Of a DNA stretch of 64,000 nucleotides, positions 319-36,392 are shown piece after piece. Location of the stretch: contig JAKSOW010000001.1 in assembly GCA_024405395.1 (NCBI GenBank), positions 6,277 through 70,276 on the forward strand, given 5' to 3'. The first letter of the stretch is position 1. The number at the start of each line of letters is the position of its first letter. A model generated the notes under the pieces. That model saw only the letters and a program-made list of their open reading frames with translations, did no database searches and was not told the origin of the DNA. Origin of the DNA: Kiritimatiellia bacterium. Lineage in GTDB: Bacteria; Verrucomicrobiota; Kiritimatiellia; RFP12; UBA1067. A program made the position numbers and the translations under genes.

Positions 319-332
319 ATTCCGGGACGACT

Positions 333-6048: not shown

Positions 6049-6078
6049 TGTCTTACATCCTTTTTCAATTTTACTAGC

Positions 6079-6612: not shown

Positions 6613-6639
6613 GATCAGTTCTCCTTTTTTTGTAAGAAA

Positions 6640-9551: not shown

Positions 9552-9553
9552 GA

Positions 9554-11685: not shown

Positions 11686-11687
11686 TG

Positions 11688-12614: not shown

Positions 12615-12615
12615 T

Positions 12616-13692: not shown

Positions 13693-13705
13693 TGCTATCT
13701 CAAAT

Positions 13706-13744
13706 GTAAAAAGCGGGAGGAAGCACTTTCATGCATCCACCCGC
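13706..13744 (-). terminator. candidate rho-independent terminator after the 13779 gene
   Basis: On the minus strand, GCGGGTGGA pairs with TCCTCCCGC (one T:T mismatch) and is followed by TTTTT. A second perfect hairpin, TTATTCGCC-GAAG-GGCGAATAA, lies at 13757..13778 directly after the stop. Confidence 0.45.
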
Positions 13745-13778
13745 CTTGTCTCAATTATTCGCCCTTCGGCGAATAACC

Positions 13779-14657
13779 TTACTTAGCATACGCAGGCATA
13801 TAGGCAGCAACACCCTTAGTACCATTGGCAATCTTCTTGCTGTACTTCAGCTTCCACGTACCATACGCAGCAAGCAGTTCAGAACCAGCAGATTCGGTAA
13901 GATCGTCACAAACCGCACCGAAATCATCGCAGATACCAACAAGACCAGCCCAGTGATAGTCACACTCACGAATGGTAGGATCACCCGTCACCGAACCGGC
14001 AACACTACCAGAAACGTTCTTGACAACACCCTTCTTGACATCAAACGAACCAAGACCAGCGAGCTTAAGGTCGTAATCACTGAAATCAGCCGTTTCAGCA
14101 TTAAAACCACCTGCCCCATCCGAGACATTACGCCAAGCATAGTCAATCCAACCCATGTCACCATTCTCATCCTTGGCGTACACCTGCTCCTTACCAGCGA
14201 AGTCCCAGACCATGGAAACCTTGTTGGCCTTCTTCTCGTAACGATAAACCTCATCGCCAACAGCCGACTTGAAGTCATTAGCCTTGTATTTCTCAACAGT
14301 CTTACCGCCTTCGACAACAGTCTCCGTAGTGAGGTAATCACCAATCACGTGCTGGAAGCCCTTATCGGTACGCCAAATCACGTACTGGGCACCATCAAAA
14401 TCGCAAGCCGACTTGCAGTTCCAAATGATACCCTTCAGCGTACGCTTACCATTCTTGTAGTAGGAGACACACGTTTTCGTCTCACCCAAGCACGCACTAC
14501 CACCCTTGCACTTAAGGGTCTTGGGAGCGAGCGTCTTAAGCTTGATCGTAAGATCATAAGCCTGACAATCCGAACTCGGATCAATCGTGCAGAGGTCACC
14601 TGCAAAAACACCAATACCAGCAGCTGCAACAGCGGCAGCAATCATCAACTTCTTCAT
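13779..14657 (-). CDS. exported Cys-rich protein, unknown family (paralog of 5266..6048)
   Basis: The best start is the ATG at 14657 (MKKLMIAAAVAAAGIGVFAG, a signal peptide), preceded by an A-rich/GGA region. It shares motifs with the 5266 gene (see that entry). The overlapping plus-strand ORF 13731..14732 is judged an antisense artefact. Confidence 0.75.
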   Translation of the reverse strand: MKKLMIAAAVAAAGIGVFAGDLCTIDPSSDCQAYDLTIKLKTLAPKTLKCKGGSACLGETKTCVSYYKNGKRTLKGIIWNCKSACDFDGAQYVIWRTDKGFQHVIGDYLTTETVVEGGKTVEKYKANDFKSAVGDEVYRYEKKANKVSMVWDFAGKEQVYAKDENGDMGWIDYAWRNVSDGAGGFNAETADFSDYDLKLAGLGSFDVKKGVVKNVSGSVAGSVTGDPTIRECDYHWAGLVGICDDFGAVCDDLTESAGSELLAAYGTWKLKYSKKIANGTKGVAAYMPAYAK

Positions 14658-21435: not shown

Positions 21436-23775
21436 TCAGTGGAAGAACTTCCGCATTTCCTCTTCCGTGTGGCAGGCGAGCAGATCCTGAGCCCCATTTT
21501 CGCTGCGAAGCTTCGAGCTGATGTAGGCCATCAGCTGGAGATAAGGCGACTGGGCCGTCTCAGGCGCCAAGGTCAGCACAATGATCTGAATGACCGAATG
21601 ATCAATGGTCTCATAGTCCGCGATGATGCCGTTTGAGTTCTCCGTGTTGTCCACGATGGCCACTGCACCAACGATCTCGTCCACGGCATCGGTACGGCCA
21701 TGCGGCACGGCAATGCCATGGTCCAATCCTGTTCCCATGGATTCTTCACGTGAGAAGACGGCCTCCTGGGCAGTCTGCACATCCTTGACGTGGTTCCCCG
21801 TTGCGTTCTTGACGGCCAGAACAAGTTCCTCAATTGCCTCACGCTTCGAATTGGCCTTGAACTTGGGCAGCATCACGAAGTTCTTGAGGTTCTTGGCGGC
21901 AGATCCAAGCACCTCCTTCTTGTCGTCCTGCTGGATGATGAGCTTTTCGATTGTGCCCTTCTCCTGCACAGGCTTGGAAATAACCTGAGCCAGCTTGTTC
22001 ATCTGCGAGACGACTTCCATCCAGGCCTGACGCACGACCGCCTCTTCCTCCGGCGTGCAGAACACCTGGATCTCCTTGCCCGTGCGCGTAATGGAAATCT
22101 CAATCGAATCCATCGACACTTCCCAGATGTCAAGATTGATTTCACGCGCCAGACGGCAGGTGAAGAAACCTTCTCTACGGAATTCGTCAACCAGCTTTTT
22201 GGCCATGATGGCGGCGACCTGCATGTCAGGCAGCTCGAAGATTACCGGACGCGACTCCTGCATGTTTTCCTTCTGCTTGCGCACGCCCTTGCGGTCGCTC
22301 TTGAAGAGCGCCACCAAGGCAGGCGGGGCAACAACGGTCGTGATGAGCGTCATGAGGATGCCGATGCCGAAAATCTCCTGCGACAGATAGCCGTTCGAAA
22401 GACCAAGGCCGGCGATGATGAGCGCCACTTCGCCACGGGGAATCATGCCCGTGCCAATGCGCACGCCGCCCAGCAGATTGAATCCGCAGAACATGGCGGG
22501 AATGGCACAGCCCGCCACCTTGGCGAAGACGGCCAACACGGTGTAGATGGCGCCAAAGTAGAGAACCGGCTTCGACATCAACGCCGAGCAGTCCACCATC
22601 ATGCCCATGACGCAGAAGAACACGGGAACGAGGAACGTGTAGACGGGAGCCAGCGTTTCCTGGATCATGTGCTTCAGGTCCGTGCGCGAAAGGGCCAGAC
22701 CCATGACGTAGGCGCCAATGATCATGGCCAATCCCATGAACTCGAAGAACCCGGCGAGAATCAGCGAGAGACCAAATGCCAAGGTGGCGATGGCCTGCGG
22801 ATTCTTGAAGAGCTTGAGCAGCCAGGAGATCTTGCGGGCGAGAAGCACGCCCACCAACGTGGCGCCCAGCCAGACGCCGAAGGCCTTGATGGCGACAATG
22901 CCGATGGCGCCCCAATTGACGCCGGCACTGGCCTCTCCGCCCTTTGCCGCCGCAGCCATCGTCGCCGCGATGACGCCGTTGCCGATGGCCAGGACAATCA
23001 GACCCAGAACGTCGTCAATCACAGCACCGGCCATGATCGAGACGCCCTCTTCCGAATCCATCTTCTTGCGCTCCGAAAGGATGCGTGCGGTGATGCCCAC
23101 CGAAGTGGCGGTCGACATGATGCCCATGTACATGGGGGCCGCATCCATCATCGCCTGAGCCAGCGGCATGGAGGAAAGCGCACCGAACTTAGCCGGGAAG
23201 AACTGCGGCAGCAGATAGACGGCACAGAGGTCGCCGAACAGGAACGACACGATAACGCCGCCCAGGCCAACCATCAGGCCGACGAACGAATACTTGAGGA
23301 AGAGCTTGAGATTGGTCTCAAGGCCCGAAAGGAAAAGAAGAATCACGGACGCCAAAGTGGCGATGCCGTACAAGGCGGGGCTTGTGGCGTCGAACATGAC
23401 GTTGTGGCCAGCCATCGTGCCGAACATGGCCGTGGCCGCCCCACCCGCCGCCTCGTTCATGGCCCGCAGAGCGGCACCGTTGAAGAGACCGTATTTGAAG
23501 AGACCATCGCCAAACCCGATGCCGCCCAATGCCCACGGGCCAATGACAATGCCGGCGGCAAGTTCGCCAAGGATCGACGGCAGCTTGAAGAAGGAGATGA
23601 GGGTGCCGCCGAGTTTGGCGGCGAAGATGATGATGCCGATCTGCAGCACCAGGAACATCATTTCCTCTACACGGGGCAAACCAAAATTCGGGTAAGCGGG
23701 AGCAGCCTCATGCGCAAACACGCCCATCGCAACCAGTGAAAACGCGATGGCAAAAAACAGTTTCTTGTTTTTCAT
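21436..23775 (-). CDS. CPA2-type cation/proton antiporter fused to a C-terminal PTS EIIA(type 2, PtsN/Fru-like) domain
   Basis: The N-terminal ~470 aa are polytopic, with the Kef/NapA-like sequence ILGELAAGIVIGPWALG. The C-terminus GTGLDHGIAVPHGRTDAVDEIVGAVAIV matches the EIIA-2 phosphorylatable-His region. Confidence 0.85.
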   Translation of the reverse strand: MKNKKLFFAIAFSLVAMGVFAHEAAPAYPNFGLPRVEEMMFLVLQIGIIIFAAKLGGTLISFFKLPSILGELAAGIVIGPWALGGIGFGDGLFKYGLFNGAALRAMNEAAGGAATAMFGTMAGHNVMFDATSPALYGIATLASVILLFLSGLETNLKLFLKYSFVGLMVGLGGVIVSFLFGDLCAVYLLPQFFPAKFGALSSMPLAQAMMDAAPMYMGIMSTATSVGITARILSERKKMDSEEGVSIMAGAVIDDVLGLIVLAIGNGVIAATMAAAAKGGEASAGVNWGAIGIVAIKAFGVWLGATLVGVLLARKISWLLKLFKNPQAIATLAFGLSLILAGFFEFMGLAMIIGAYVMGLALSRTDLKHMIQETLAPVYTFLVPVFFCVMGMMVDCSALMSKPVLYFGAIYTVLAVFAKVAGCAIPAMFCGFNLLGGVRIGTGMIPRGEVALIIAGLGLSNGYLSQEIFGIGILMTLITTVVAPPALVALFKSDRKGVRKQKENMQESRPVIFELPDMQVAAIMAKKLVDEFRREGFFTCRLAREINLDIWEVSMDSIEISITRTGKEIQVFCTPEEEAVVRQAWMEVVSQMNKLAQVISKPVQEKGTIEKLIIQQDDKKEVLGSAAKNLKNFVMLPKFKANSKREAIEELVLAVKNATGNHVKDVQTAQEAVFSREESMGTGLDHGIAVPHGRTDAVDEIVGAVAIVDNTENSNGIIADYETIDHSVIQIIVLTLAPETAQSPYLQLMAYISSKLRSENGAQDLLACHTEEEMRKFFH

Positions 23776-23875: not shown

Positions 23876-25843
23876 TTAGTGATGTCCCCTTTTGATGATG
23901 ATGGCCAGAACCGAAATGTCGGCAGGATTGACGCCCGGAATGCGGCCCGCCTGTGCCAAAGTCTCCGGACGATACTTCTTCATCTTTTCCCGGCTCTCAT
24001 ACCTGATGGCCGGACACTTGTCGTAATCCAGCCAATGGGGAATCTTGATGTTCTCGTCGCGCTTGGCCCGTTCGGCGGCAATGTTCTCCTGGCGAATGTA
24101 GCCGGCGTAGTGGTGACGGATTTTCACCTGTTCAACCACAGGATCAGGAACCTGAATGGAAGAGCCGCCGATTTCGATCTCGGCGTTAGGGTTACCGTCA
24201 GGCTGAACAGACAATACGCGTTTCAGCTTTTTGTTGTCCTGCTCGATGGTGTTGATCATATCGGCAAACGATTTGGTTTCCTCCCGAATGACCTTCGGCA
24301 GAATGCCTACCCTTTCCGCTGCTTCCTGCAGGCGGTAGCGGGCATTGTCCTGACGCAGGATCAGGCGGCGCTCGGCACGTGATGTGAACATGCGATAAGG
24401 TTCATCGGTTCCCTTGGTGACCAAGTCATCGATCAATACGCCAATGTACGCATCCTGGCGGCTGATCACAAGCGGGCTTTCATGCTTGACCTTGAAGGCG
24501 GCATTTATTCCCGCCATGATGCCCTGGGCGGCAGCTTCCTCATAACCCGTTGTCCCGTTGATTTGGCCGGCAAAGAACAGACCGGATATACGCTTGGATT
24601 CCAGCGAATGCGTCAGCTCACGGGCGTCAATTCCATCATACTCAATGGCGTAGGCATACGCAAGGAATTCGGCGTGCTCCAGACCTGGAACGGAATGGAC
24701 CAGTTCTTCCTGAACCTGACGAGGAAGAGAGTTGGATAGACCATTAGGATAGATGATCTGCCCTGCACGATCTTCGGGTTCAAGGATGACATGATGACCA
24801 TCAACACCCGCGAATCTGACTATCTTATCCTCAATCGATGGACAATACCTGACGCCCGTTCCACTTATCATTCCACCATAAAGAGATGAATCCTTAAGAT
24901 GCGAACGTATGATTTCATGGCTGATTGGCGTTGTATGGGTTGCCCAACAGATAGCTTTAGCGGAATTCAAAGGCCACGGAGCGAACAAATCCGCATTGTT
25001 CCACGTGGAACAGTCCGTTGAACTGGATTCTGATGCGGAATTGGCATTGTTCCACGTGGAACAAAGACCAGAAATGGGTTCAGATGAAGCTAAATCATGG
25101 TTGTTCCACGTGGAACAATTGATTCCGGGTGTTAAACCATGGGAAAGGAGGTATCTGGTTCTGAGGGAGAAATAAGGCGGATTATCCTCTCCTTCCTGCG
25201 GTGTACACACCGAAAAGTCGCAGCTTGATGCCTTTAAGCGTGGCGGTGTACCTGTTTTAAGCCGAATAAGCTGAAAACCGAGTTTGGAAAGCGAATCGGA
25301 TAGCTGATTGACGGCTGGCCGCCCATCTCCGCCAGATTCCGTGCATTCCTTGCCAATGAATATCCGCCCTCGCAAAGCCGTTCCGGAGGTTATCACCAAA
25401 GCCTCACAGTTGATCAGTCCGTTCTTCTCGGTTCTGATTCCGGTTACGGTGTCATGATTGGTTATCACCTCAAGGGCGGCATCCTCGATCACGGTCAGGT
25501 TTTTGGTGCTGTTGACAACCAACTGCATGCGCCGTGTGTATTCGCTCTTGTCGCATTGTGCTCGTGTTGCCTGCACGGCTGGACCACGGCTCAAGTTCAA
25601 TGTCTTTTCCTGGAGCGAAGTGAGGTCGGTGTTGAATCCCATTTCGCCGCCCAACGCATCCAACTCAAACACCAGATGACTTTTGGCAAGTCCGCCAATG
25701 GAAGGATTGCAGGGCATACGCGCAATGGCAGACTTGAGCCCCGTAACCAAAAGGGTGTCAATGCCCATGCGTGCAGCGGCCAATGCCGCTTCGGCTCCGG
25801 CATGGCCTCCACCAACCACAACAATTGAAAAATCTGTTTTCAT
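23876..25843 (-). CDS. mnmG: tRNA uridine-5-carboxymethylaminomethyl modification enzyme MnmG (GidA), with an internal repeat insertion
   Basis: The FAD motif is [19 protein letters not shown]. Other conserved stretches are [12 protein letters not shown] and [19 protein letters not shown]. The segment between PPYFSLR and ICWATHTT is about 68 aa long. Confidence 0.95.
24997..25117. repeat. three perfect copies of the 16-nt palindrome TGTTCCACGTGGAACA inside mnmG
   Basis: Copies lie at 24997..25012, 25048..25063 and 25102..25117, with spacings of 51 and 54 nt (in frame). Each encodes CSTWNN in the mnmG frame. The sequences between the copies are unrelated to each other. Confidence 0.9.
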
Positions 25844-25933
25844 TGCAGATATTATAACATGCTTTAAGACAAAATATAAGAGATAACAGATAAAAGATAA
25901 ACGAGGGCCTCTGCTTTTCTCGATGAAATCTTT

Positions 25934-26174
25934 AAGACAGGATTTACAAGATTAACAGGATTTAGAAGCCTGACCGATTGAGATAATTAATGTGGCGATT
26001 GCAAGTCGTGGTCGGTGGGTTCATTGAAACCAGTCCTGTCTGTTTAATAGGCGTAGGTTCAGGTAGGACAACATTGACGATGCCGCCGCTAATGAGATAT
26101 TGCAGTATCCTCAATAAATAAAGCAACATCGGGGAAATCCTGTTAATCCTGTTAATCCTGTCGGAAATCAGGAT
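25934..26174. repeat. inverted clusters of ACAGGATT(T/A) / (A/T)AATCCTGT 9-mers flanking ~165 nt
   Basis: ACAGGATTT lies at 25937 and 25955. Three contiguous copies, AAATCCTGT-TAATCCTGT-TAATCCTGT, span 26135..26161. AAATCAGGAT follows at 26165. The arms GACAGGATTTACAAGATTAACAGGATTT and GACAGGATTAACAGGATTAACAGGATTT (reverse complement of the right arm) are near-identical. Confidence 0.7.
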
Positions 26175-27191
26175 CTGCTCTGTCAGTCCAGTTCTCAGTT
26201 AGTTTCCGTTAAGATTTTGACTGAAAAGCCCGCCAGTAGAATTCATCAGTCAAAAACCTGAATCGCCTAAGCAATCAAGGAAAGGGGCTGGAAAAATCCC
26301 GGAATCATGAGCGTCATATTCACCTCGACAAAGGAGTGCGTGATTTGAGAATTGAGGGCTAAAAGGCGAATGTGTCTTGTCCAATCATATCGAAAACATC
26401 GCGATTGAATTGTCCGGAAGGGTTCATTCTCAATCGTTTTCCGTGGCCGCCAGATGGCGGTTTCCGTGTCCTTCCATGGTCTTCTACCTGGCGAAACAAC
26501 ATTATTCAACATATCAAATAACTTCTGGCTTTTTGGGAAAATGCAGATGCATTTGCCATACTGGAGATCCTCTCGTTCCGCTAAAACTTCAATGATCAAA
26601 TGATCCGATGAGATTCACTATCAACAGTTATTCACATTTATGAAACGAGCGATTATGCGACAAACAGAAGAGGCCCAAGTACGGGAAACCTTGATTTTAC
26701 GGGCTTTTATGCTTGTGCCGAAAAAGTCAACAGAAAGATATGCAAAATACTGTCATAATTATGAACTACTTATGAACAGGTTTTAGGCAACGGTTCAGAA
26801 CTATTGACAGGTGATTTCTGCAATGTAATTCACATTATCGGCCCATAAGCATGGAAGGGCCGAATGTTATGACGGAAACGGAAAGGAAACCCCTTATGAT
26901 CTGGGGTGTGGTCGTCAAAACGGAACTCACCGTAGAGCATCATCCCCTGCGGCAAGGCTCAGTACCTGAAGCATGGGGATTTGGTATCAGAAGCAGGAAT
27001 TCGTAGTATCTGAGTCAAATGAAACGGTATCTGAGATGAATTCCATTGTCTGGGTAGGATTGCAGTACATGTTCCATGACTGTTTCATTTGGAATGTCGG
27101 AAAAGGGGCTGAAAGCGTCTCATCTCAGAGTGTAATGCGTTATGCGTCAAATTGGCGGCAACGGAGCAGTTGCGAATACAACAAATTAAAA

Positions 27192-27221
27192 TTGTATACA
27201 TATTAAAGGATATGCTATACT
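27192..27221 (+). promoter_or_regulatory. candidate promoter TTGTAT-18 nt-TGcTATACT for the beta-helix gene
   Basis: The extended -10, TGCTATACT, lies at 27213..27221 within an AT-rich tract. An AGGAGG RBS lies at 27241, and the ATG is at 27253. Confidence 0.4.
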
Positions 27222-27252
27222 TTAAGCATCGTCAACCGCAAGGAGGAAAGAA

Positions 27253-28620
27253 ATGGGTCTTGTCAATAAAGTAGCTTGCATGGCATGCGCCATGTTGGGA
27301 GTCGCCGTGACCGCAGAAGCTGCGGACATCTATGTTTCGTTGGATGCCGGAAAGAACAAGAATCCCGGAACGAAGGAATCTCCGCTCAAGAATCTCTGGA
27401 AGGCGCTCGAGAAGGCGGAACATGGCGATGTCATCCATGTGGCCGAGGGCATCTATCCCGGCAAGATGAAGCAGAGCTGGTTCAAGATCGACAAGGCCGT
27501 CTCCATCATCGGCGGCTATGCGAAGGACTTTTCGGCCCGTCAGCCGCTCGTCCACAAGACGATGTTCCAGGCGCTGAACGACAACAACGACAAGAAGGGC
27601 AATGGCCTTGGCGTGTTCCACGTCGAGTTCGACCACACCAAGCCCGAGCCCGACGGCGTCAACATGGTTTTCGACGGTCTCATCTTCGATGAGGGCTTCG
27701 CGAATTCCTACCATGAGACCAAGGGCAAGCCCGAGGGGTTCGACACCGGCATGTGGCTGGAGGGCCCGGCATGGAACAAGAACCGCGACAAGTTCCCGTC
27801 CCCCAATCGCTATCTCGTCTATTCGGCTACGCAGAACCGTGCCACGGGCAATGTGACGTTCAAGAACTGCTCGTTCGTCAACTCCGGCAACATTGCGCTC
27901 AACTTCACGTGGTACAAGGGCAAGGTCACGGTCGAGAACTGCGTGTTCTGCAACAACCGCATGATTGGCGCCAACGTGCTCTGCTCGTCGGCGGTGCCGA
28001 TGGACGGCCCCAACAAGCCTCGTGCCGGCTGGAAGCCCGTCGTCGAATGGGAGTTCGCGCACAACACGGTGCTCTTCACCTGGAGCCGCCTCAACGATCT
28101 CGGCGACATGGGCTTCGGCATCCGCAACAACACGGGCGTCAAGGCCAACATCCATGACAACGTGATCGGCCTGAACGTCCTCACGGGCTTCGACAACACG
28201 AAGGGTGCCGGCAAGACGAAGATCACCAACCTCGACAACAACATCTTCTTCCTCAACCGCGAAAGCGATGTCCAGATGACGGTCTCGCCTTCGATCGCCA
28301 AGGTTCGTGTGGATGGCTTCGAGGATCTCGAGGGCACGGATGGCATCGAGTCCATCGAGGACAATGCGGACCTCAAGGATCCGTCCGTGTTCAAGGGCCG
28401 CCTCAATGCGAAGTACCTGAATTCCTTCCTCTCGATGAAGTACTCCGAGAAGACGAAGCTCGACGAGGGCAAGTGCAACGGGCTCCGTTCCGTCCTGGGT
28501 CTGCCGCTGCAGGGCACGATCACGACTAAGTGCGACATGTTCTGCAACCGCTATCCGCTTGAGGATGCCCTCAAGCTCTTCGGTGCGATCGCCGGCAAGG
28601 GTGCGCAGGACATCAAGTAA
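27253..28620 (+). CDS. exported right-handed parallel beta-helix protein (DUF1565/pectate-lyase-fold-like)
   Basis: The signal peptide is MGLVNKVACMACAMLGVAVTAEA. The sequence ADIYVSLDAGKNKNPGTKESPLKNLWKALEKAEHGDVIHVAEGIYPG is the usual N-terminal cap of DUF1565-type beta-helix proteins. Repeated N-rich turns such as VTFKNCSFVNSGN and VENCVFCNN follow. Confidence 0.8.
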   Translation: MGLVNKVACMACAMLGVAVTAEAADIYVSLDAGKNKNPGTKESPLKNLWKALEKAEHGDVIHVAEGIYPGKMKQSWFKIDKAVSIIGGYAKDFSARQPLVHKTMFQALNDNNDKKGNGLGVFHVEFDHTKPEPDGVNMVFDGLIFDEGFANSYHETKGKPEGFDTGMWLEGPAWNKNRDKFPSPNRYLVYSATQNRATGNVTFKNCSFVNSGNIALNFTWYKGKVTVENCVFCNNRMIGANVLCSSAVPMDGPNKPRAGWKPVVEWEFAHNTVLFTWSRLNDLGDMGFGIRNNTGVKANIHDNVIGLNVLTGFDNTKGAGKTKITNLDNNIFFLNRESDVQMTVSPSIAKVRVDGFEDLEGTDGIESIEDNADLKDPSVFKGRLNAKYLNSFLSMKYSEKTKLDEGKCNGLRSVLGLPLQGTITTKCDMFCNRYPLEDALKLFGAIAGKGAQDIK

Positions 28621-28765
28621 GATGGCGGGAATGTCCTTCACGAACGCCGCCCATTTCATTTGAGTTGTGCAGTGGGCGTGACGGCTGCCCGTCGGGGCAG
28701 CCGTCAACAGTTTGGGGTCGTGGAGATAAAGCGCATGAGGGCGCAATCCCCAAGAGGATGGCGAG

Positions 28766-30853
28766 ATGATAGTAGACAAAGTGAAATGGGGCGCAGGCTG
28801 TCTCATTGAAATCGCCGTGCTGCTGGCGGTTAGCGTGGTGTTCACCCAGGAGCAGCTGAACGCCTGCATCAGGTTCATGGTCATCCTCGCGATTCCGTCG
28901 TGGCTGCTGCGGCACTTTCTCTTCACGGAGCGCACGCCCGATTGGCTGCGCATGCTGTTCGGTCCCATGGGGCTGCTGCTGTGCGTTGTCCTGGGCTACT
29001 TCATTCCAATCTCGGTTTCGAACGCGGCGGATCCCGAAAACGTGGGCGGCAAGGCGGCGGAGACCGTCGAAACCAAAAAGGATGCCGAGCCGCCGGAATC
29101 GGCCGAGGCTGTGCTCGCCCAGCTTGATGATCTCGTTGGCCTTGAGGGCGTCAAGGCCGAGGTGAAGAAGATCGTCAATCTCGTCAAGATCAACGAAGCC
29201 CGCAAGGCCCAGGGCCTCAAGGTGCCGCCCATGACCTACCACATGGTCTTCACCGGCAATCCCGGAACGGGCAAGACCACGGTGGCTCGCCTCGTTGCGC
29301 GTGCGTTCGTGGCGTTGGGCATCATCGGAAACAGGACGATCGTCGAGGTTGACCGCTCGTCGCTGGTCGGACGCTACATGGGCGAGACGTCGGTGAAGAC
29401 GAACCAGAAGATCGATGAGGCCATGGGCATCAGGCCCAGGTTCGACAAGTCCGGCAAGCCCGTCGAGCTGACGGCCGAGCAGCGCATCCGCGAAACGGAA
29501 AAGGCCCCGGGCGGCGTGCTGTTCGTCGACGAAGCCTATCAGCTCGTGAACGGCGACAACGACGACTACGGCAAGGAGGCGATTGCCACGATACTCAAGC
29601 GGATGGAGGACAACCGCGACAAGCTGATCGTGATCGCCGCCGGCTACACGGATGAGATGCGCGACTTCCTGGACGCGAACTCCGGTCTTCGCAGCCGTTT
29701 TGCGCGCACGATCGAGTTCGCCGACTACACGGCCGTCGAACTCGCGAAGATCTTTCGGTCGATGGCCAAGAAGAACCAGTTCACGCTGGCGGAGGATCTG
29801 GACAAGGGCCTGGGGGCGGCCATCGAGAAACTCACGAAGAAGCGCGACCGCACATTTGGCAACGCCCGTTTCATCCGTCAGCTCTTCGAGGACGCCACGG
29901 GCCGCCAGGCCAACCGGCTGGCCGAGGCGGGGAAGATGGACGCCGCTGCGCTCACCACGCTCACGCTGGCCGATCTTGGTCTGAAGGAGAAGAAGGAAGA
30001 CGTGCGTGCGCCCACGATCGAGGAAGTGCTGGCCGAGCTCGATTCGCTCACGGGCATGCAGCCCGTCAAGGACGAGATTCGCCGCCTCATCGCCTCCTGC
30101 CGAGCCAACAAGCTGCGTGAGGAGAAGGGCGTTGAGGGCAATGTCACGATGAGCTACAACTTCGTCTTCACCGGCAACCCCGGCACAGGCAAGACCACCG
30201 TGGCCCGCATTCTCGGCAAAGCGTTTCGCGCCCTGGGGATTCTTGATCGCGCAAACTTCGTGGAGACGGATCGCTCGGGACTCGTCGCCAAGTACGAGGG
30301 GCAGACGGCTCTGAAGACGAACCGCCTGATCGATTCGGCCAAGGGCGGCATCCTGTTCATCGACGAAGCCTATCAGCTGAATCAGGGCGAGAACGACCAG
30401 TTCGGCTCCGAGGCGGTCGCCACGCTCCTCAAGCGCATGGAGGACTCGCGGGGATCGATGGTCGTGATCATCGCCGGCTACAAGGAGGAGATGAAGAAGT
30501 TCATGGCGATCAACTCCGGTCTCGAAAGCCGGTTCAACCGCACAATCGAATTTCCCGATTTCACCACCAAGGAGCTGGGCACCATCTTCCGCAGCATGGC
30601 CAAGAAGGGGAAGTACAAACTCTCGGCGGACGTGGAACACTGGTTGAATCCCTACATCGCCATGCTCACGAAGAAGAAGAGCAAGGCCTTCGGCAATGCG
30701 CGCTGGGTGCGCAATCTCTTCGAGAAGTCGGTCGAGCGCCAGTCGCTGCGCATCGTCGACCTGAAGGATCCCTCGGCCGAGGAGCTCGTCACGTTGCGTC
30801 TGAAGGATGTTGGCATTTCGCTCAAGGATCCCAATGCCTCGGCTGAGGACTAG
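28766..30853 (+). CDS. membrane-anchored tandem AAA+ ATPase (CbxX/SpoVK/EccA-type modules)
   Basis: The N-terminal ~90 aa contain 2-3 hydrophobic helices. There are two modules with the Walker A sequence FTGNPGTGKTTVAR (nt ~29251 and ~30166). The Walker B sequences are LFVDEAYQL and LFIDEAYQL. GYxxEM and SRF motifs typical of the CbxX/SpoVK group are present. Confidence 0.85.
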   Translation: MIVDKVKWGAGCLIEIAVLLAVSVVFTQEQLNACIRFMVILAIPSWLLRHFLFTERTPDWLRMLFGPMGLLLCVVLGYFIPISVSNAADPENVGGKAAETVETKKDAEPPESAEAVLAQLDDLVGLEGVKAEVKKIVNLVKINEARKAQGLKVPPMTYHMVFTGNPGTGKTTVARLVARAFVALGIIGNRTIVEVDRSSLVGRYMGETSVKTNQKIDEAMGIRPRFDKSGKPVELTAEQRIRETEKAPGGVLFVDEAYQLVNGDNDDYGKEAIATILKRMEDNRDKLIVIAAGYTDEMRDFLDANSGLRSRFARTIEFADYTAVELAKIFRSMAKKNQFTLAEDLDKGLGAAIEKLTKKRDRTFGNARFIRQLFEDATGRQANRLAEAGKMDAAALTTLTLADLGLKEKKEDVRAPTIEEVLAELDSLTGMQPVKDEIRRLIASCRANKLREEKGVEGNVTMSYNFVFTGNPGTGKTTVARILGKAFRALGILDRANFVETDRSGLVAKYEGQTALKTNRLIDSAKGGILFIDEAYQLNQGENDQFGSEAVATLLKRMEDSRGSMVVIIAGYKEEMKKFMAINSGLESRFNRTIEFPDFTTKELGTIFRSMAKKGKYKLSADVEHWLNPYIAMLTKKKSKAFGNARWVRNLFEKSVERQSLRIVDLKDPSAEELVTLRLKDVGISLKDPNASAED

Positions 30854-30932
30854 GCTCGTTGTGCGATAGGATGAATTTTAATAGTTGAAAACAAATCGGC
30901 ATGCGGTCATCCGCAGAAAGGCAGAAAGAAGA

Positions 30933-32099
30933 ATGGCAGTTACAGAAACGACAACCGTGTCCTGGGGTTCACGGCTTGGAAGCTCCATCAAGGGCGTGCT
31001 CTTTGGGTTGGTGCTTTTTGGCGTGGGCTTCCCCGTCCTCTTCTGGAACGAGGGCAATTCGGTCAAGACGGCCAAGGCGCTGGACGAGGGCGAAGGCGCC
31101 TGCATCCCCGTCGAGTCGAATGCGAAGATCGATGCGGAGATGGAAGGCCAGCTCGTGCACATGACGGGCATGGCGGACACCAAGGACGTGCTGACGGACG
31201 ACGCCTTCGGCATCTCCACGACGGCCATCGCCCTCTCCCGTGAGACGGAGATGTACCAGTGGGAGGAGGAGAGCCACACCACCGAGAAGAAGAACATGGG
31301 CGGCAGCGTCACGAAGACCACCACCTACACCTACAAGCAGGTGTGGTCGAGCCGGGCGATCGACTCCAGCAACTTCAAGGAAGCGGGCCACGACAACCCG
31401 GGCTTCATCGAATTCCCCTCCGAGGACAAGCGGGCGGCCAACGTCTCGTTCGGCGCTTTCCAGCTGAACGAAAAGCAGATCGGCCGCATCGGCTCCGCCC
31501 AGGCCTATCAGCTCCCCACCGGCTTCGTGTGCAAGGTTGCGCGCGTGCAGTATCAGGGGCAGTACATTCTCGTGCCGAACAAGGCCACCCGCGAGAACGC
31601 GCTCAACAACCGTGACGTGGCGTCGCAGCCGCGGGTGGGCGACATGCGCGTTTCCTTCAAGGTGATCCAGCCCCACAAGATCTCCATCGTCGCCAAGCAG
31701 CGGGGGAATTCCTTCGTGGGCTATCTGGCGAAGACGAAGAAGAAGGTGGACCTGCTGCAGGATGGCGTCGTCGATCTGCCGGAGATGTTCGAGGCGGCCC
31801 GTGATGCGAATGCGCTCCTGACCTGGCTGCTGCGTCTGGGCGGATTCCTCCTGATGTATGTCGGCCTCAGCATGGTCTTCAGGCCGCTGTCGGTTCTGGC
31901 GGATGTGCTGCCGATCCTCGGCGACATCGTTGGCATGGGCACGGGTCTCGTGGCCGGCGTCATCGCCCTCGTCTGCGCATTGGTGACAATCGCCATTGCC
32001 TGGATCTTCTACCGTCCCGTGCTGGCGATTGCGCTGCTCGTGGCGGCGGGTGCGCTGGTCTTCTTCATCATCAAGAAGAAGGCCGGGGCCAAGAAGTAG
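30933..32099 (+). CDS. TMEM43/DUF1625-like membrane protein
   Basis: WGSRLGSSIKGVLFGLVLFGVGFPVLFWNEGNSVKTAKALDEGEG matches my recollection of the DUF1625 N-terminus. The C-terminus has a cluster of hydrophobic helices. The start is ATG 30933 (MAVTETT...) or the upstream ATG at 30885. Confidence 0.65.
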   Translation: MAVTETTTVSWGSRLGSSIKGVLFGLVLFGVGFPVLFWNEGNSVKTAKALDEGEGACIPVESNAKIDAEMEGQLVHMTGMADTKDVLTDDAFGISTTAIALSRETEMYQWEEESHTTEKKNMGGSVTKTTTYTYKQVWSSRAIDSSNFKEAGHDNPGFIEFPSEDKRAANVSFGAFQLNEKQIGRIGSAQAYQLPTGFVCKVARVQYQGQYILVPNKATRENALNNRDVASQPRVGDMRVSFKVIQPHKISIVAKQRGNSFVGYLAKTKKKVDLLQDGVVDLPEMFEAARDANALLTWLLRLGGFLLMYVGLSMVFRPLSVLADVLPILGDIVGMGTGLVAGVIALVCALVTIAIAWIFYRPVLAIALLVAAGALVFFIIKKKAGAKK

Positions 32100-32130: not shown

Positions 32131-34035
32131 ATGTCGATCCGTTCCTTTAGGCGACTGATCATGGTGCTGGGCCTCGGCGTTTCTGCCGGGGCCCTCTCGC
32201 TCCACGGAGAGGTCGTAATCGAGAATGCCGCCTGCCGCCTGGTCATTTCCGATGCGGCGGAGGCCACTTCCCTTGTCGTGAAGGCCACCGGCGAAGAGTG
32301 TCTGGCGACGGATGTCGCCATTCCCTTCGCGTCGATTCTCCAGAACCGGCCCTACGACAACGAGCTCAAGCTGATCTACCCGGCCAAGTCTTGGCGTGTC
32401 CCCGCCAATCGGGTGACGCAGGAGGGCGACCTGCTCAAGCTCCGCTTCCGCGATGAGTTCTTCGTGCTGAAGGTTCGCGTGCGCCTCACGGATGACTACA
32501 TCGCCTTCACGCCCGAGGGCACCGACTACGAAGTGCCCGACTTCGGCGACAAGCGGCCGACGGAAATCGACGGCATCGAGTTTCTTCGCCTGCCGATCCG
32601 CTCGCGCACGCGCTATGGCAAATGCGCCAATGTCGCCTGGGACGAAAAGGCGGCGCTTGCCGTGATGGCGCTTGATCCCGCCACGGAAGTTTCGGGCGAC
32701 GTTCCGGAGGGCACGCGCAACTGGCGGCGGTTTGCCGCAGGCGCCGATGCGCGCATCGGCCTCTGGGAACATGGTGCCGCGCTTTTCGCCTGCCGTTCCG
32801 CGGAGTTCCTCGATCACGTTGATGCGCTTGAGCGCGACTACGATATGCCCAGGGGCGTGAAGATGCGCCGCGACCCGCTGCATCGGGCAAGCTACTGGTT
32901 CATGTCGGACATCTCACCTGCCAACATGCAGGAGCACATCGCCTGGATGAAGAAGGGCGGCTTCCGTCTGGGCGTCATTTCGTACACGGCCTTTGCGCGC
33001 ACCTGCGGACACTTTGACTGGCGAAGCTCCTACCCGAACGGAATGGATGACCTGAAGCGCGTGACCGGCGAAATGCGGAAGGCGGGCATCACGCCCGGCA
33101 TTCACATCCACTACTGCAAGGTGTCCACCAACGATCTCTACGTCACGAATGGCCGCCCGGATCCGCGGCTGGCCACGGCAAGTGAAGTCACGCTGGCGCG
33201 TGCCGTCGGCCCGGGCGACACGGAGTTCTTCGTGGAGGGCAATCCCGACGTCCTGCGCATGGAACGCGGGCGGCGGCTGATTCTCTTCGGGAACGAACTC
33301 GTCTCCTACGAAGGCGTCTCCTCGACACGCCCCTATCGGCTGACGGGCGTGGTGCGTGGTCTGCATGGCTCGCGGGCTGTGGCGCACGCCGCCCACGAAT
33401 ACGGCCGTCAGCCCGACGTCGATGATTGGCCCTATTTCATCCGCATCGATCCCCGGACGGATATCCAGGACGAAATCGCCGACCGCCTGGCCGCTATCAT
33501 TGACGGTGCTGGATTCGAGTTCATCTACTTTGATGGGGCGGAAGATGTGCCGCCGCCTTTCTGGCACTATGTCCCGATGGCCCAGCAGCGGGTCTGGAGC
33601 AAACTCAAGCGAAAGCCGCGGGCGGCCGAGGGCGCGCTCAAGAGCCATTGGGGCTGGCACATGCTCAGCCGCGGCAACGCCTTCGACTCCTTCATTCCGG
33701 AGCGGACGCGCAATGCCGCCGAGACCTACATCATCCCCTGCGCACGCGATGGGGCCGACGACTTCTCGGCGGTGAACTTCGGTTGGGTGCGGCCTTACTA
33801 CCCTGGTGAACGTCTCTGGCATCCGGCCACGAGTTTCCTCGTGAAGAATGCGCCGGTCAGCGTCACTCGGGGAACGACGGCGGAGGATCTCGACTACTTG
33901 TGTCAGGCGGCCGAACAGTGGAAGTGTCCGCTTTCGGTGAAGGGCGTATTGGGCGTCTTCCGGCAACATGCCGAGGCGGATGCACTCATGTCCGTGCTGA
34001 AGAAATGGGAGGACGAAAAGTGGATCACAAGGTGA
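32131..34035 (+). CDS. exported protein of unknown function (possibly TIM-barrel glycosidase-like)
   Basis: The signal peptide is MSIRSFRRLIMVLGLGVSAGALSLHG. I recognise no diagnostic motif. Segments such as GITPGIHIHYCKV and GFEFIYFDGAEDV suggest alternating beta/alpha units. Coding is supported by its length and by the weak antisense alternative. Confidence 0.65.
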   Translation: MSIRSFRRLIMVLGLGVSAGALSLHGEVVIENAACRLVISDAAEATSLVVKATGEECLATDVAIPFASILQNRPYDNELKLIYPAKSWRVPANRVTQEGDLLKLRFRDEFFVLKVRVRLTDDYIAFTPEGTDYEVPDFGDKRPTEIDGIEFLRLPIRSRTRYGKCANVAWDEKAALAVMALDPATEVSGDVPEGTRNWRRFAAGADARIGLWEHGAALFACRSAEFLDHVDALERDYDMPRGVKMRRDPLHRASYWFMSDISPANMQEHIAWMKKGGFRLGVISYTAFARTCGHFDWRSSYPNGMDDLKRVTGEMRKAGITPGIHIHYCKVSTNDLYVTNGRPDPRLATASEVTLARAVGPGDTEFFVEGNPDVLRMERGRRLILFGNELVSYEGVSSTRPYRLTGVVRGLHGSRAVAHAAHEYGRQPDVDDWPYFIRIDPRTDIQDEIADRLAAIIDGAGFEFIYFDGAEDVPPPFWHYVPMAQQRVWSKLKRKPRAAEGALKSHWGWHMLSRGNAFDSFIPERTRNAAETYIIPCARDGADDFSAVNFGWVRPYYPGERLWHPATSFLVKNAPVSVTRGTTAEDLDYLCQAAEQWKCPLSVKGVLGVFRQHAEADALMSVLKKWEDEKWITR

Positions 34036-34613
34036 TGGACATCCGCACCATGTTTGCGACGATGACGCCCGAGCAGATTCGGGAAGTGTCGCGTGAACGG
34101 GAACTGGACGAATGGCGTGCGGTGAATCGCTTCTGCGGCAAGTGCGGGGCGGCGATGCAGCCGCATGCCAATCCGGCGGAGCGTGCGTTCGTGTGCCCGA
34201 CCTGCGGGTACATGTCCTATCCCAAGCTCTCGCCGGCGGTGATTGCCCTGGTGGTGCGCGACGACAAGATCCTGCTGCAGCGGAACACGCACTACAAGAC
34301 CGCGAACTGGACGCTGGTGGCGGGCTTCGTGGATCCGGGCGAAAGTTTCGAGGAGGCCGTTCGCCGCGAAATCCATGAGGAGGCGTCGCTGGAAGTTGAG
34401 AACCTGCGCTACTTCGGTTCACAGACCTGGCCATTCCCCTCCAACATCATGGTGGCGTTCACGGCACGTTACGCCGGCGGTGAACTCAAGCCAGACGGTG
34501 AGGAAGTCGTCGAGTCGGGCTGGTTTGACCGCGACCATCTTCCGGCGATTCCCTACAAGGGCTCCATCGCCAGAAGGATGATCGATGCGTGGCTGGCAGG
34601 TGAAATCACCTGA
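34035..34613 (+). CDS. nudC: NADH pyrophosphatase-type Nudix hydrolase
   Basis: The start ATG overlaps the upstream TGA (TGATG). The zinc ribbon is CGKCGAAM...CPTCG. The Nudix box is GFVDPGESFEEAVRREIHEEASL. The downstream sequence QTWPFPSNIMVAF is as in NudC. Confidence 0.85.
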   Translation: MDIRTMFATMTPEQIREVSRERELDEWRAVNRFCGKCGAAMQPHANPAERAFVCPTCGYMSYPKLSPAVIALVVRDDKILLQRNTHYKTANWTLVAGFVDPGESFEEAVRREIHEEASLEVENLRYFGSQTWPFPSNIMVAFTARYAGGELKPDGEEVVESGWFDRDHLPAIPYKGSIARRMIDAWLAGEIT

Positions 34614-34646
34614 AAAAGCGGCTTGTCCCAATGGGGAGGATTTTGA

Positions 34647-36392
34647 ATGGCGCACATTGAAAGATGGATTGTCGGGTTGGCGCTTGTGGCATGTGGGATG
34701 GCTCAGGCCATGACGTGTGCCACAAAGGGCGACTATCTGGATCTGATGGAGGCGGCGGTCTCCGCCTATGACGATGCGCACATTGCCGCCTACGTCGAGG
34801 CCGCCGATCGCGATGGCGTGCAGGAGCATGGCTTCCCGCGTCTGGTGGCGAATGTCGGCGTGCTGGTGGCGAACGGACGCCTGTCCGAAAGGCGCGATCT
34901 CTTCCGGCGCATGATGACGATTGCCTGCCGCGATGCGGCGAAGGGCAAGATGCCGCCGAAGTCGGGCGGCAACGAGTTCTCGGTGAAGGAACTGGTGGTT
35001 GCGCTCGTGGCCCTGGAGAAGTCGGGCACGTTCCCCAAAGCCGAGACCGACGCCTGGCGCAAGGCGTTGACATCAGTCGACGCGAAGCGCTGCTATTCGA
35101 AGCTGCCGAAATGCGGGGCGAAGCTCGCCAACAACTGGTGCATCTTCGGCTGCGCAAGCGAACAGGCGCGTCTTGCCGCCCGTTGCGGCGGTGATGCGCA
35201 GCACATCGAGATGTATGTCGCCGACCAGCTGCGTTGGTTTGACGAGAACGGCATGTACAAAGATCCCAATCAGCCGGCCGTCTACGACTTCGTGACGCGT
35301 CTGCAGTTTGCGATGGTTCTCCACTATGGCTACGACGGGCCGTCTCGCGAGAGGTTGGAGGGGCTCATGGCCAAGTCGGCCGAGCCCACGTTGGCGATGC
35401 TGTCGGCCTGCGGCGAGATCCCCTACGGTGGGCGCTCCAATCAGTTCCTCCACAACAACACCTTCTATTCGGCGCTCTGCGAATGGTATGCCGCAGGCTT
35501 CGCGAAACGGGGCGATCTCCGTCAGGCCGCCCGTTTCCGCCGAGCCGCGAAGAAGTCGGTTGATGCGGTGCGCGAGTGGCTGGCCGTCAGGCCGATGCGT
35601 CACGTGAAGAACCTCTATCCGCGGAAGTCCGGCAAGGAGGTCTATTCCAGGGAAGCCGACATGGGCTGTGAGCGCTACGCCTATTTCAACAAGTACATGG
35701 TGACCATGGGCTCCTGGGCGATGAGCGCCTGGCTCTTTGCCGAGGATGTGGCCAAAGAACTTCCGGAGGAGGCCGAGGTCGCGGCGTCTTCGTTCCGGAC
35801 TTCTGACGACTTCCATTTCTTCTTCCTGAAGGCCGGCGACTATTCGGCCCAGTTCGATCCCAATGCCAACAGGACCTACGATGCCGATGGCCTGGGCCGA
35901 ATCTGCCGCAAGGGCGCCCCGGCGGCAATCTGCCTGTCGGTGCCGTGTGCGGTGAACCCGCACTATCGCATCGAGACGCCCAACGACGCTCCGCTCACCA
36001 TCGCCCCGGTTGCGAAGGGCGACCTCCAGCTTTCCTGCACGCGCTTCGGCAACGACGACAAGTCTGCCTGGGCCGACTGGAAATCGGCCGCCGGCGAATG
36101 GAGGAACACCCTCACCGGGCAGGGACTGGAGATGACGCTTGAAGGCGCTGGCCCCGTGGCGCTCGCGTTGCCTGCCTTTGCCTTCGATGGCGAATGCGAA
36201 ACGCGAATCGACTGCAAGGACACGACCCTTGCGATTGCCTACAGGGGCTGGCGCTGCGTGTACACGGTCAAGGCGGGAACGATCGTGGACACGGGACGGG
36301 TGGCCTGCAACCGCAACGGACGCTATCGCCGCTTTGAGTTACGTGGCGATGGACGCGTGGCCGCCTCGGTCACGATTGAGCGCATCCGCTAG
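34647..36392 (+). CDS. exported protein of unknown function
   Basis: The signal peptide is MAHIERWIVGLALVACGMAQA. The N-terminal half looks helical and the C-terminal half beta-rich, a layout seen in some polysaccharide lyase/hydrolase folds. I recognise no motif. Confidence 0.65.
   Translation: MAHIERWIVGLALVACGMAQAMTCATKGDYLDLMEAAVSAYDDAHIAAYVEAADRDGVQEHGFPRLVANVGVLVANGRLSERRDLFRRMMTIACRDAAKGKMPPKSGGNEFSVKELVVALVALEKSGTFPKAETDAWRKALTSVDAKRCYSKLPKCGAKLANNWCIFGCASEQARLAARCGGDAQHIEMYVADQLRWFDENGMYKDPNQPAVYDFVTRLQFAMVLHYGYDGPSRERLEGLMAKSAEPTLAMLSACGEIPYGGRSNQFLHNNTFYSALCEWYAAGFAKRGDLRQAARFRRAAKKSVDAVREWLAVRPMRHVKNLYPRKSGKEVYSREADMGCERYAYFNKYMVTMGSWAMSAWLFAEDVAKELPEEAEVAASSFRTSDDFHFFFLKAGDYSAQFDPNANRTYDADGLGRICRKGAPAAICLSVPCAVNPHYRIETPNDAPLTIAPVAKGDLQLSCTRFGNDDKSAWADWKSAAGEWRNTLTGQGLEMTLEGAGPVALALPAFAFDGECETRIDCKDTTLAIAYRGWRCVYTVKAGTIVDTGRVACNRNGRYRRFELRGDGRVAASVTIERIR

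Follow-up and report, generated by a model that had tools for sequence, protein, structure and literature searches.

Each member of the SpoVK/CbbX/EccA clade of AAA+ ATPases is believed to serve one client, often an envelope-related one, as its dedicated chaperone. CbbX, the activase of red-type Rubisco (3SYL, 3ZUH), is a remodeller dedicated to one client: it is soluble, contains one ATPase module and acts on the RbcL tail (PMC11513918). [quoted passage not shown] The beta-helix polysaccharide lyases, among them Pel9A (1RU4), RbmB (9OZL), rhamnogalacturonan lyase (5OLQ) and the PL6 alginate lyases, are secreted proteins with a right-handed parallel fold. Human TMEM43, or LUMA, has been linked to cardiomyopathy. 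It resides in the inner nuclear membrane and the ER, has lamins, emerin and SUN2 as binding partners, and consists of one TM helix, a large non-cytoplasmic domain and three further TM helices (PMC3198171).

Relatives of all three protein types are neighbors in the DNA analysed here (the window), a stretch of 64,000 nucleotides from a Kiritimatiellae metagenome-assembled genome (MAG; contig JAKSOW010000001.1), where the following features were located:

27253-28620, + strand: DUF1565 beta-helix gene (ORF, 455 aa)
28678-28708, + strand: GC-rich hairpin, ~13 bp stem and 4-nt loop (sequence and RNA fold)
28766-30853, + strand: tandem AAA+ gene (ORF, 695 aa)
30885/30933-32099, + strand: TMEM43 gene (ORF; 388 aa from 30933)

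All three ORFs are present on the + strand as the earlier note had placed them, and Pfam matches together with hydropathy bear out its domain calls: a predicted exported beta-helix protein, a membrane-anchored tandem ATPase of the SpoVK/CbbX type and a TMEM43/DUF1625 protein. Its description of a co-directional trio with short gaps is accurate for the genes themselves but draws the boundary too early: the run goes beyond three genes, through 32131-36392, and the trio opens a long series of co-directional genes. In the gene tables of the ortholog loci nearly every gene is co-directional with its neighbors regardless of function; since these genomes pack their genes densely and co-directionally by default, shared direction and short gaps say little, and genes that are co-directional and closely spaced here should not be equated with an operon. 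The hairpin lies in the 145 bp that part the beta-helix gene from the AAA+ gene, and RNA folding of 28655-28735 gives -32.6 kcal/mol (z = -2.25 vs. shuffles); it has no U-tract and was not called by a consensus terminator scan, and it may mark a transcript boundary. A strand switch precedes the trio. Together with a sign change in GC skew it would fit a replication origin (oriC), which may explain the switch, but a scan with the E. coli-type consensus found no enrichment of DnaA boxes. An anti-phage defence reading was dropped: PADLOC returned only generic AAA matches (IetA, TRIP13) for the ATPase and none for the other proteins.

The ATPase can be divided as follows:

28790-29011, + strand: N-terminal membrane anchor, residues 9-82 (Kyte-Doolittle scan)
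29096-29980, + strand: AAA+ module D1, residues ~111-405 (motif search, ortholog conservation)
29426-29509, + strand: 28-aa insert in D1, residues 221-248, GIRPRFDKSGKPVELTAEQRIRETEKAP (D1/D2 alignment)
29981-30853, + strand: AAA+ module D2, residues ~406-695 (motif search)

Hydropathy, Pfam and motif searches agree on the proposed order of a two- to three-helix anchor followed by two complete modules. In the anchor, two strongly hydrophobic segments (residues 9-27 and 64-82) enclose a less hydrophobic one at ~34-50 (Kyte-Doolittle); eight of nine orthologs can be aligned over this region, the ninth (P0097) having a shorter N-terminus with one hydrophobic segment. Beyond it, two AAA (PF00004) and two AAA_lid_6 (PF17866) matches delineate modules that are 47% identical to each other by BLASTP and that both carry intact Walker A, Walker B, GY sensor-1 and GNAR sensor-2 motifs. 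These lie in D1 at residues 164 (Walker A, GNPGTGKT), 202 (pore loop, GRYMG), 251 (Walker B, VLFVDEA), 291 (AAGY), 305 (NSGLRSR) and 365 (GNAR), and in D2 at 470 (Walker A), 508 (pore loop, AKYEG), 529 (Walker B, ILFIDEA), 569 (IAGY), 583 (NSGLESR) and 643 (GNAR). Both predicted rings thus retain the motifs for ATP binding and hydrolysis. The NSGLESR motif of D2 has a Glu in place of the first Arg of D1 (N305-S-G-L-R309) and keeps N583 and the second Arg, R589; E587, S588 and R589 are invariant in nine aligned orthologs, as AAGY 291 and IAGY 569 are among the aligned orthologs. [quoted passage not shown] The 28-aa insert that had been noted in D1 does exist, no other large gap being present when D1 and D2 are aligned, but it does not border a sensor motif: the helix after pore loop 1 (GRYMG) precedes it and the Walker B strand follows it. 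It is found in six of nine aligned orthologs (the carriers include the window protein, P0002, P0004, P0010, P0013 and P0097), 672-aa forms do not, and L012/L014 have a 27-aa insert at the same site; judged by this alignment, only some members of the family have the insert.

Among proteins of solved structure CbbX is the closest relative of both modules (E ~3e-51), with the AAA_lid_6 lid, GY sensor-1 and GNAR sensor-2 in common, followed by the homologous module of EccA1 from type VII secretion (9LUR; E = 9e-48), a protein with a secretion/envelope role; SpoVK of Bacillus subtilis belongs to the same higher-order clade. Nevertheless, the window protein is none of these in the strict sense. Each of the three family profiles matches it in several stretches: TIGR02880 (CbbX) scores 417.9, which falls short of its 459.25 cut-off even with both modules added up; TIGR02881 (SpoVK) scores 514.7 and exceeds its cut-off of 422.95 only by summing two modules over three stretches; and TIGR03922 (EccA) scores 453.9, below 466.65, with no TPR match in Pfam. 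CbbX lacks the anchor and the second module, and a TM-helix N-terminus, two modules and a Kiritimatiellae host set the protein apart from SpoVK proper; no Rubisco genes were seen near the AAA+ gene, and no ESX genes are among its neighbors. An N-terminal TM anchor with an AAA+ ring at the cytoplasmic face is a plan it shares with FtsH and Msp1/ATAD1. FtsH, however, joins a protease domain to one AAA module, and Msp1, which extracts tail-anchored proteins, contains a single module; a Pfam search detected no protease domain in the window protein.

The earlier note had taken such ATPases to be usually soluble and single-module, which is true of the studied members but does not extend to the clade at large: Ignavibacteria have a three-module form, and Methylobacterium bullatum encodes a 651-aa protein (NZ_LR743510.1, L106:5971-7926) with two N-terminal hydrophobic helices and two SpoVK-type modules. 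The latter is 38% identical to the window protein over residues 40-663 and differs from it by the absence of the 28-aa insert and by an extra single-module AAA+ gene located 5' of its own; the record is unannotated and the protein unstudied. More than 100 orthologs at 70-78% identity occur in Kiritimatiellae metagenomes, and the TM-anchored tandem form, which Kiritimatiellae and Methylobacterium at least possess, is an uncharacterised architecture. Its N-terminal helices would tether the protein to the cytoplasmic face of the inner membrane. If CbbX, SpoVK and EccA are a guide, it would assemble into a hexamer with two stacked rings and remodel a small number of dedicated clients close to the membrane. 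The client of this anchored form is worth finding precisely because members of the clade are thought to be dedicated chaperones of this kind.

The third gene resembles TMEM43/DUF1625, as suspected, over the full length of the Pfam model (PF07787, the family of LUMA; E = 3.7e-73, 246.4 bits vs. a cut-off of 23.3, profile positions 1-250 of 250). Its mechanical ORF starts with the TTG at 30885, but alignments to homologues begin only at residue 17, which makes the ATG at 30933 the most likely start. Hydropathy and the AF2 model (pLDDT 71) agree on four TM helices with a large TM1-TM2 loop, the same plan as that of LUMA: a helix at 11-36, a beta domain at 58-277 (pLDDT ~75-94) and helices at 294-322, 337-357 and 362-387. 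The protein would accordingly sit in the inner membrane and expose a beta-rich domain of ~220 aa to the periplasm. Its N-terminal tail (SWGSRLG) is strongly conserved. The lamins, emerin and SUN2 that LUMA binds do not exist in bacteria, and our literature search, in keeping with the earlier note, found no functional data on bacterial members of the family.

The first gene is preceded by an AGGAGG ribosome-binding site and begins with a predicted export signal:

27253-27321, + strand: putative Sec signal peptide of the beta-helix protein, residues 1-23, MGLVNKVACMACAMLGVAVTAEA followed by AD

The protein, probably exported via the Sec pathway, matches Pfam DUF1565 (PF07602) at 25.6 bits against a cut-off of 20.3, the match being limited to residues 32-89 and profile positions 2-60 of 257; its orthologs (66-87% identity) bear the annotation DUF1565 or right-handed beta-helix and have weak precomputed matches to PF22842 (Pel9A-like). 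Its AF2 model, of moderate confidence (pLDDT 65.7, pTM 0.77), shows repeated short strands of a right-handed beta-helix across residues 60-334, and the best PDB neighbors found by Foldseek are beta-helix lyases and esterases (RbmB, rhamnogalacturonan lyase, Pel9A and PL6 lyases), all of them weak matches (E ≥ 8e-4, TM 0.2-0.4, 11-13% identity). From this moderate-confidence model and these weak fold matches we infer that the protein most likely acts on or binds carbohydrates in the periplasm or at the surface and is folded like a polysaccharide lyase; it would then share right-handed fold and secretion with the lyases introduced above. Its orthologs adjoin GH88, GH28 or GH43 genes at some loci and unrelated genes at others. 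A Streptomyces protein (WP_331737556.1), in which a Beta_helix/NosD domain is fused to a SpoVK-type module with AAA_lid_6, shows that a beta-helix can take the place of the N-terminal domain in the SpoVK clade. There, however, beta-helix and ATPase form one polypeptide, whereas the window beta-helix has a signal peptide and is expected on the other side of the membrane; we also discarded the fusion as a Rosetta-stone link between the two window genes, the fused beta-helix not being detectably similar to that of the window (E = 0.8).

The suggestion that the three genes form an envelope or export module fares unevenly in other genomes: adjacency, whose lack the earlier note had named as refuting the idea, is not conserved in most of them, but the trio recurs on one contig and TMEM43/beta-helix pairs occur elsewhere. 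In ortholog locus samples drawn without regard to co-occurrence, which are small and include some contigs with short flanks, TMEM43 was near the AAA+ gene in 0/9 AAA+ lineages, a SpoVK-type AAA+ gene lay within 10 kb in 0/13 close, Kiritimatiellae-type and 0/69 distant TMEM43 loci (0/82 in total), and neither partner accompanied the beta-helix gene in any of three lineages. By tblastn, phmmer and profile search, none of 80 TMEM43 loci from GTDB species representatives had a SpoVK-type AAA+ gene within 10 kb. AAA+ orthologs at 67-78% identity reside in varied contexts devoid of TMEM43 (L003, L004/5/105, L006, L009-L015), with TrxB-like, OPT-transporter or aminotransferase, VIT/YfaP_C and ABC1 genes as neighbors in L003, L004/5, L105 and L006, and the closest relatives of the window AAA+ protein in the tree (L006, L003) are among those lacking the cluster. 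TMEM43 orthologs at 61-78% identity are in turn found apart from the AAA+ gene (L007, L017-L028), as they are at the 69 distant loci from many phyla. A search for conserved neighbors of TMEM43 across the 82 loci yielded only generic families at varying distances (response regulators/histidine kinases, ABC transporters, dehydrogenases), and no neighbor family is kept across phyla. One ortholog (P0149) lies between mutS/rubredoxin and tig-clpP-clpX, and a link to Clp ATPases was considered and dropped, ClpC beside TMEM43 in L029 and tig-clpP-clpX nearby in L007 being single cases that do not recur.

The sole other instance of the trio is a metagenome contig (L102) on which AAA+, TMEM43 and beta-helix genes follow in that order, at 67%, 72% and 79% identity to those of the window; its flanks are unrelated and no other gene is common to the two loci. 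Such a recurrence cannot be chance and agrees with a functional unit of three parts whose genes are frequently scattered. Matching of longest-contig values across three homologue tables, meant to reveal proteins encoded on one contig, was valid for the values 10729 and 5070, in a number of matches close to chance expectation; the candidates 4235, 3672, 3548 and 3239 were discarded for that reason, and a co-location of P0077 with P0123, deduced from the shared value 4022, was abandoned when the fetched contig (L105) proved to have no TMEM43 gene.

Comparison lends real support to one linkage only: TMEM43 and the beta-helix gene are loosely, not obligately, paired. Besides L102, the two are adjacent in L026, L027, L103/L104 and a gammaproteobacterial MAG (L085), with the beta-helix gene first in L027 and TMEM43 first in L026, L102, L103 and L085, and with different flanks; the pair is absent from 11/13 close and 68/69 distant TMEM43 loci and from all three beta-helix-anchored lineages. 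We slightly favor the reading in which the trio consists of separately conserved envelope-related genes that are found together here, and not of an obligate operon or machine, with TMEM43 and the beta-helix gene loosely paired and the AAA+ gene joining that pair only occasionally. All three families are widely conserved in Kiritimatiellae (66-87% identity). The pairing suggests that TMEM43 and the beta-helix protein meet in the periplasm, where TMEM43 could perhaps serve as the latter's membrane anchor or partner, and its recurrence constitutes a modest lead.

Rather less probable, in our judgment, is the absence of any functional link, with all adjacencies representing a decaying remnant of ancestral Kiritimatiellae gene order plus a chance or transferred pair in L085. 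Few loci are positive, genes have been extensively reordered and the flanks differ at each locus examined; in the TMEM43 tree the window protein is sister to L103/L104 and L026 to L027, which puts part of the signal down to shared ancestry, and the L085 protein groups with PVC sequences, as would fit transfer of a pair. Nevertheless, the pair has been kept while its surroundings changed, and in both orders, the pattern that selection for proximity usually leaves, and the L085 beta-helix protein, directly beside TMEM43, is 34% identical to that of the window, a juxtaposition whose chance probability we roughly estimate at ~0.002 over the 69 distant loci if the beta-helix family is rare.

A trans-envelope system, in which the AAA+ protein acts on TMEM43 (for example on its conserved cytoplasmic tail) and TMEM43 controls or positions the beta-helix enzyme, strikes us as unlikely. 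It does not require adjacency, hence the scattering of the genes in most genomes; the recurrence of the trio in permuted order between unrelated flanks, the pairs in four further lineages and the wide conservation of all three families agree with it, as do the conserved SWGSRLG tail, the complementary predicted locations at the cytoplasmic face, in the membrane and in the periplasm, and the dedicated clients reported for CbbX-clade chaperones (PMC11513918). Against it stand the complete lack of AAA+/TMEM43 adjacency in the sampled lineages and loci, the presence of the same tail in phyla with no such AAA+ gene nearby, the M. bullatum locus (L106), whose anchored tandem AAA+ gene has neither a TMEM43 nor a beta-helix gene within 6 kb, and the hairpin that separates the beta-helix gene from the AAA+ gene. 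More specific and very improbable is a cytoplasmic AAA+ motor that grips the TMEM43 tail and gates the periplasmic domain and the glycan-active beta-helix protein, which, if true, would give the TMEM43 family, human LUMA included, its first mechanistic partner.

In the favored reading of separately conserved genes with a loosely paired TMEM43 and beta-helix, the TMEM43 family, which comprises 5687 clusters at 50% identity (E ≤ 1e-3) and has thousands of bacterial members, gains a small testable lead in its secreted DUF1565 beta-helix partner.

The adjacency of AAA+ and TMEM43 genes seen in the window is rare and does not represent a conserved operon: it recurs at none of 22 unbiased ortholog loci and none of 69 distant ones, so that the outcome which the earlier note named as refuting its module, adjacency not kept in other genomes, is largely borne out. 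The three genes in question and the other large features of the region are laid out as follows.

Main features of the window
23876-25843, - strand: mnmG/gidA, divergent from gene 1
27253-28620, + strand: gene 1, ORF for the beta-helix protein, 455 aa
28766-30853, + strand: gene 2, ORF for the AAA+ protein, 695 aa
30885-32099, + strand: gene 3, ORF for the TMEM43 homologue, 404 aa as ORF
37854-48383, + strand: giant ORF, 3509 aa
49537-55584, + strand: giant ORF, 2015 aa
58449-62222: ORF, 1257 aa

As had been noted from the sequence, the trio comprises the first genes past a strand switch, here a 1.4-kb AT-rich non-coding gap (25844-27252) between the divergent mnmG (-) and gene 1 (+), and its members are indeed co-directional and closely spaced, with 145 bp between genes 1 and 2 and 31-79 bp between genes 2 and 3. 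A 31-bp gap beyond gene 3 leads to further co-directional genes for a 634-aa unknown protein, a NUDIX protein and a 581-aa unknown protein, and because this run extends to 36392 the three-gene cut-off is arbitrary. Between genes 1 and 2, positions 28678-28708 contain a strong GC hairpin lacking a U-tract, a terminator-consensus scan returned no site in the trio’s intergenic gaps, and a defence-system search of the trio gave no match.

The second gene encodes a protein fully (100%) identical to one from the Kiritimatiellae MAG GCA_024500545.1 (NCBI), and the two complete AAA+ modules described earlier behind a 2-3-helix anchor are confirmed by paired PF00004 and AAA_lid_6 matches, by motif content and by hydropathy, the N-terminus featuring two strongly hydrophobic segments and a weaker one in a region that aligns in eight of nine orthologs. 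The first and second modules (D1 and D2) share 47% identity and both keep the Walker A GNPGTGKT, Walker B DEA, GY sensor-1 and GNAR sensor-2 motifs. GY sensor-1, Asn-x3-Arg and sensor-2 signatures define the SpoVK-EccA-like clade (Delerue et al., PMC11513918); the Asn-x3-Arg signature is complete in D1, whereas D2 retains only the Asn, with Glu replacing the first Arg (NSGLESR vs. NSGLRSR in D1), a substitution invariant in the nine aligned orthologs. The ~28-aa insert reported for the first module is likewise present (residues 221-248) and constitutes the sole large indel between D1 and D2, but it sits past the pore-loop helix and ahead of the Walker B strand rather than at the sensor region; only part of the ortholog family carries it, 672-aa forms being without it. 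Among solved structures, CbbX and EccA1 are its closest relatives. The protein does not truly fit the equivalog definition of SpoVK, CbbX or EccA and is an unnamed branch of the SpoVK/CbbX/EccA clade. By analogy with that clade, it would form a membrane-tethered hexamer with two rings and remodel a dedicated client.

A 651-aa protein of Methylobacterium bullatum likewise combines two TM helices with two SpoVK-type modules, and the anchored tandem architecture is thus not unique to Kiritimatiellae; there (L106:4813-7926, NZ_LR743510.1, unannotated) a 363-aa single-module paralogue directly precedes it. In an Ignavibacteriaceae MAG (L001:5999-14716), a SpoVK-type protein of 1113 aa has a zinc ribbon ahead of three AAA+ modules; it is flanked by a Ser/Thr kinase, a DZR/FHA protein and a PP2C phosphatase, and is a multi-module clade member in a signalling context. 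Streptomyces features a beta-helix fused to a SpoVK-type AAA+ protein, although that beta-helix is unrelated in sequence to gene 1.

Gene 3 matches the full length of PF07787 (E=3.7e-73), which bears out its earlier likening to TMEM43/DUF1625, and its homologues begin at the ATG at 30933. In the structural model a single N-terminal helix precedes a beta-rich domain, predicted with confidence and resembling none of the solved structures, and three C-terminal helices follow. Bacterial members of the family are numerous (5687 clusters at 50% identity), and our literature search agrees with the stated dearth of bacterial functional data, having found no paper on the function of any bacterial member. 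Variants include a 686-aa homologue with an LRR_4 match (P0234) and, on Roseobacter plasmids of Ruegeria and Phaeobacter (L108:4385-8483 and L109:4386-7495), genes within a common cassette of hypothetical genes (~190 aa, TMEM43, ~155 aa, ~272 aa), a lineage-specific neighbourhood unlike that of the window.

The description of gene 1 as encoding an exported beta-helix protein is a fair one, drawing on an N-terminus, MGLVNKVACMACAMLGVAVTAEA|AD, that reads as a Sec signal peptide, on a DUF1565 match confined to the first 60 positions, and on an AF2 model of moderate confidence (25 orthologs; pLDDT 65.7, pTM 0.77) with a long series of short strands. A strong AGGAGG site precedes its ATG, NCBIfam weakly matches the N-terminus to a Leptospira surface-protein family, and orthologs with weak Pel9A-like beta-helix matches abound in Kiritimatiellae metagenomes at 66-87% identity. 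The best PDB neighbours of the model, each of them a right-handed beta-helix enzyme, are RbmB, rhamnogalacturonan lyase, Pel9A, PL6 alginate lyases and pectin methylesterases; their scores are weak (E of at least 8e-4, TM 0.2-0.4), and the product is probably carbohydrate-active.

To survey neighbourhoods we anchored on each trio gene in turn. On long contigs, the AAA+ orthologs neighbour a TrxB-like reductase (L003), an aminotransferase and OPT transporter (L004, L005 and L105), or a VIT/YfaP_C protein and giant ABC1 kinase (L006), and seven metagenome loci display four further arrangements; no TMEM43 or beta-helix gene was found in the flanks of these long-contig and metagenome loci. At L006 (5542-10106) the ATPase closest to the window’s (78% identity) overlaps the end of the 820-aa VIT + YfaP_C gene by 4 bp and is followed by the 2004-aa ABC1-kinase-like gene, making these neighbours candidates for a different partner of the same ATPase. 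One TMEM43 ortholog (78% identity) has mutS/rubredoxin on one side and tig-clpP-clpX on the other, and beta-helix orthologs on long contigs stand beside GH88/GH28 and GH43 genes or unrelated ones. A scan with a diverse TMEM43 alignment, covering a single genome for each GTDB species, yielded 80 loci from Kiritimatiellae, Lentisphaerae, Verrucomicrobia, Planctomycetes, Acidobacteria, Myxococcota, Proteobacteria, Patescibacteria and other phyla; tblastn, phmmer and profile searches placed a SpoVK-type AAA+ within 10 kb of TMEM43 at none of them, and an all-against-all comparison of the flanking ORFs revealed no conserved neighbour family. Nearly all genes across the surveyed loci are co-directional with short gaps, so the same feature of the window carries no weight.

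The TMEM43/beta-helix pair, by contrast with the AAA+/TMEM43 one, does recur: roughly one close locus in six has it, either gene may come first, the flanks differ, and another phylum provides a single case. The order at L103 and L104 is LRR gene, TMEM43, beta-helix gene; in the GTDB scan a beta-helix gene lies directly upstream of TMEM43 at L027 and downstream at L026, and a 34%-identical homologue directly follows TMEM43 in a gammaproteobacterial MAG (L085). Locus L102 carries all three genes, in the order AAA+ (67% identity), TMEM43 (72%, extended at its C-terminus) and beta-helix (79%), amid flanks unrelated to the window’s; its 545-aa TMEM43 protein (4861-6498) owes its length to ~150 additional residues that match DUF5763 (E=2e-8). 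As L102 and L103 were picked on suspected co-occurrence, a beta-helix protein and a TMEM43 match having contigs of equal length, both were left out of the frequency estimates. A suspected AAA+/TMEM43 co-location at L105, selected in the same way, failed, and this selection was rejected as a general method. The positive loci are dispersed over the neighbour-joining trees, and the window’s nearest AAA+ relatives lack the cluster.

Together, the rare AAA+/TMEM43 adjacency and the recurrent TMEM43/beta-helix pairing lead us to favour, by somewhat more than an even chance, three independent genes with a weak link between TMEM43 and the beta-helix gene; pairing that recurs in this way is commonly read as pointing to a loose functional tie. 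That the adjacency is purely an ancestral remnant and the genes are functionally unlinked is rather unlikely. The envelope module of the earlier note, taken as a genuine system of three parts with usually dispersed genes, has the repeated trio at L102 and the recurring pair in its favour but, with AAA+ and TMEM43 forming no conserved operon, is slightly less likely still.

Beyond the three independent, weakly linked genes favoured here, the surrounding region has features of its own. GC skew sign and gene orientation (- to +) both flip at the 25844-27252 gap, which is therefore a candidate origin of replication; E. coli-type DnaA boxes, however, show no enrichment over the whole window (7 vs. 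7.2 expected), and only one lies inside the gap. A fused Na+/H+ exchanger-PTS EIIA gene (21436-23775, -) adjoins mnmG, and its counterpart in a relative (L007:13265-15598) adjoins mnmE/trmE, ~4 kb from TMEM43, placements that hint at an ancestral block rearranged around the region. Positions 1-14000, with 41-52% G+C vs. 60-66% in most of the window, strongly negative GC skew and every large ORF on the - strand, may be an acquired island. Within mnmG/gidA itself (24997-25117), the 16-bp perfect palindrome TGTTCCACGTGGAACA occurs in three exact copies spaced by 51 and 54 bp, where 0.03 would be expected by chance; the copies sit in an ~80-aa in-frame insertion that splits the Pfam GIDA match and repeats the protein motif CSTWNN three times, and they could represent an array of protein-binding sites or a small palindromic mobile element in coding sequence.
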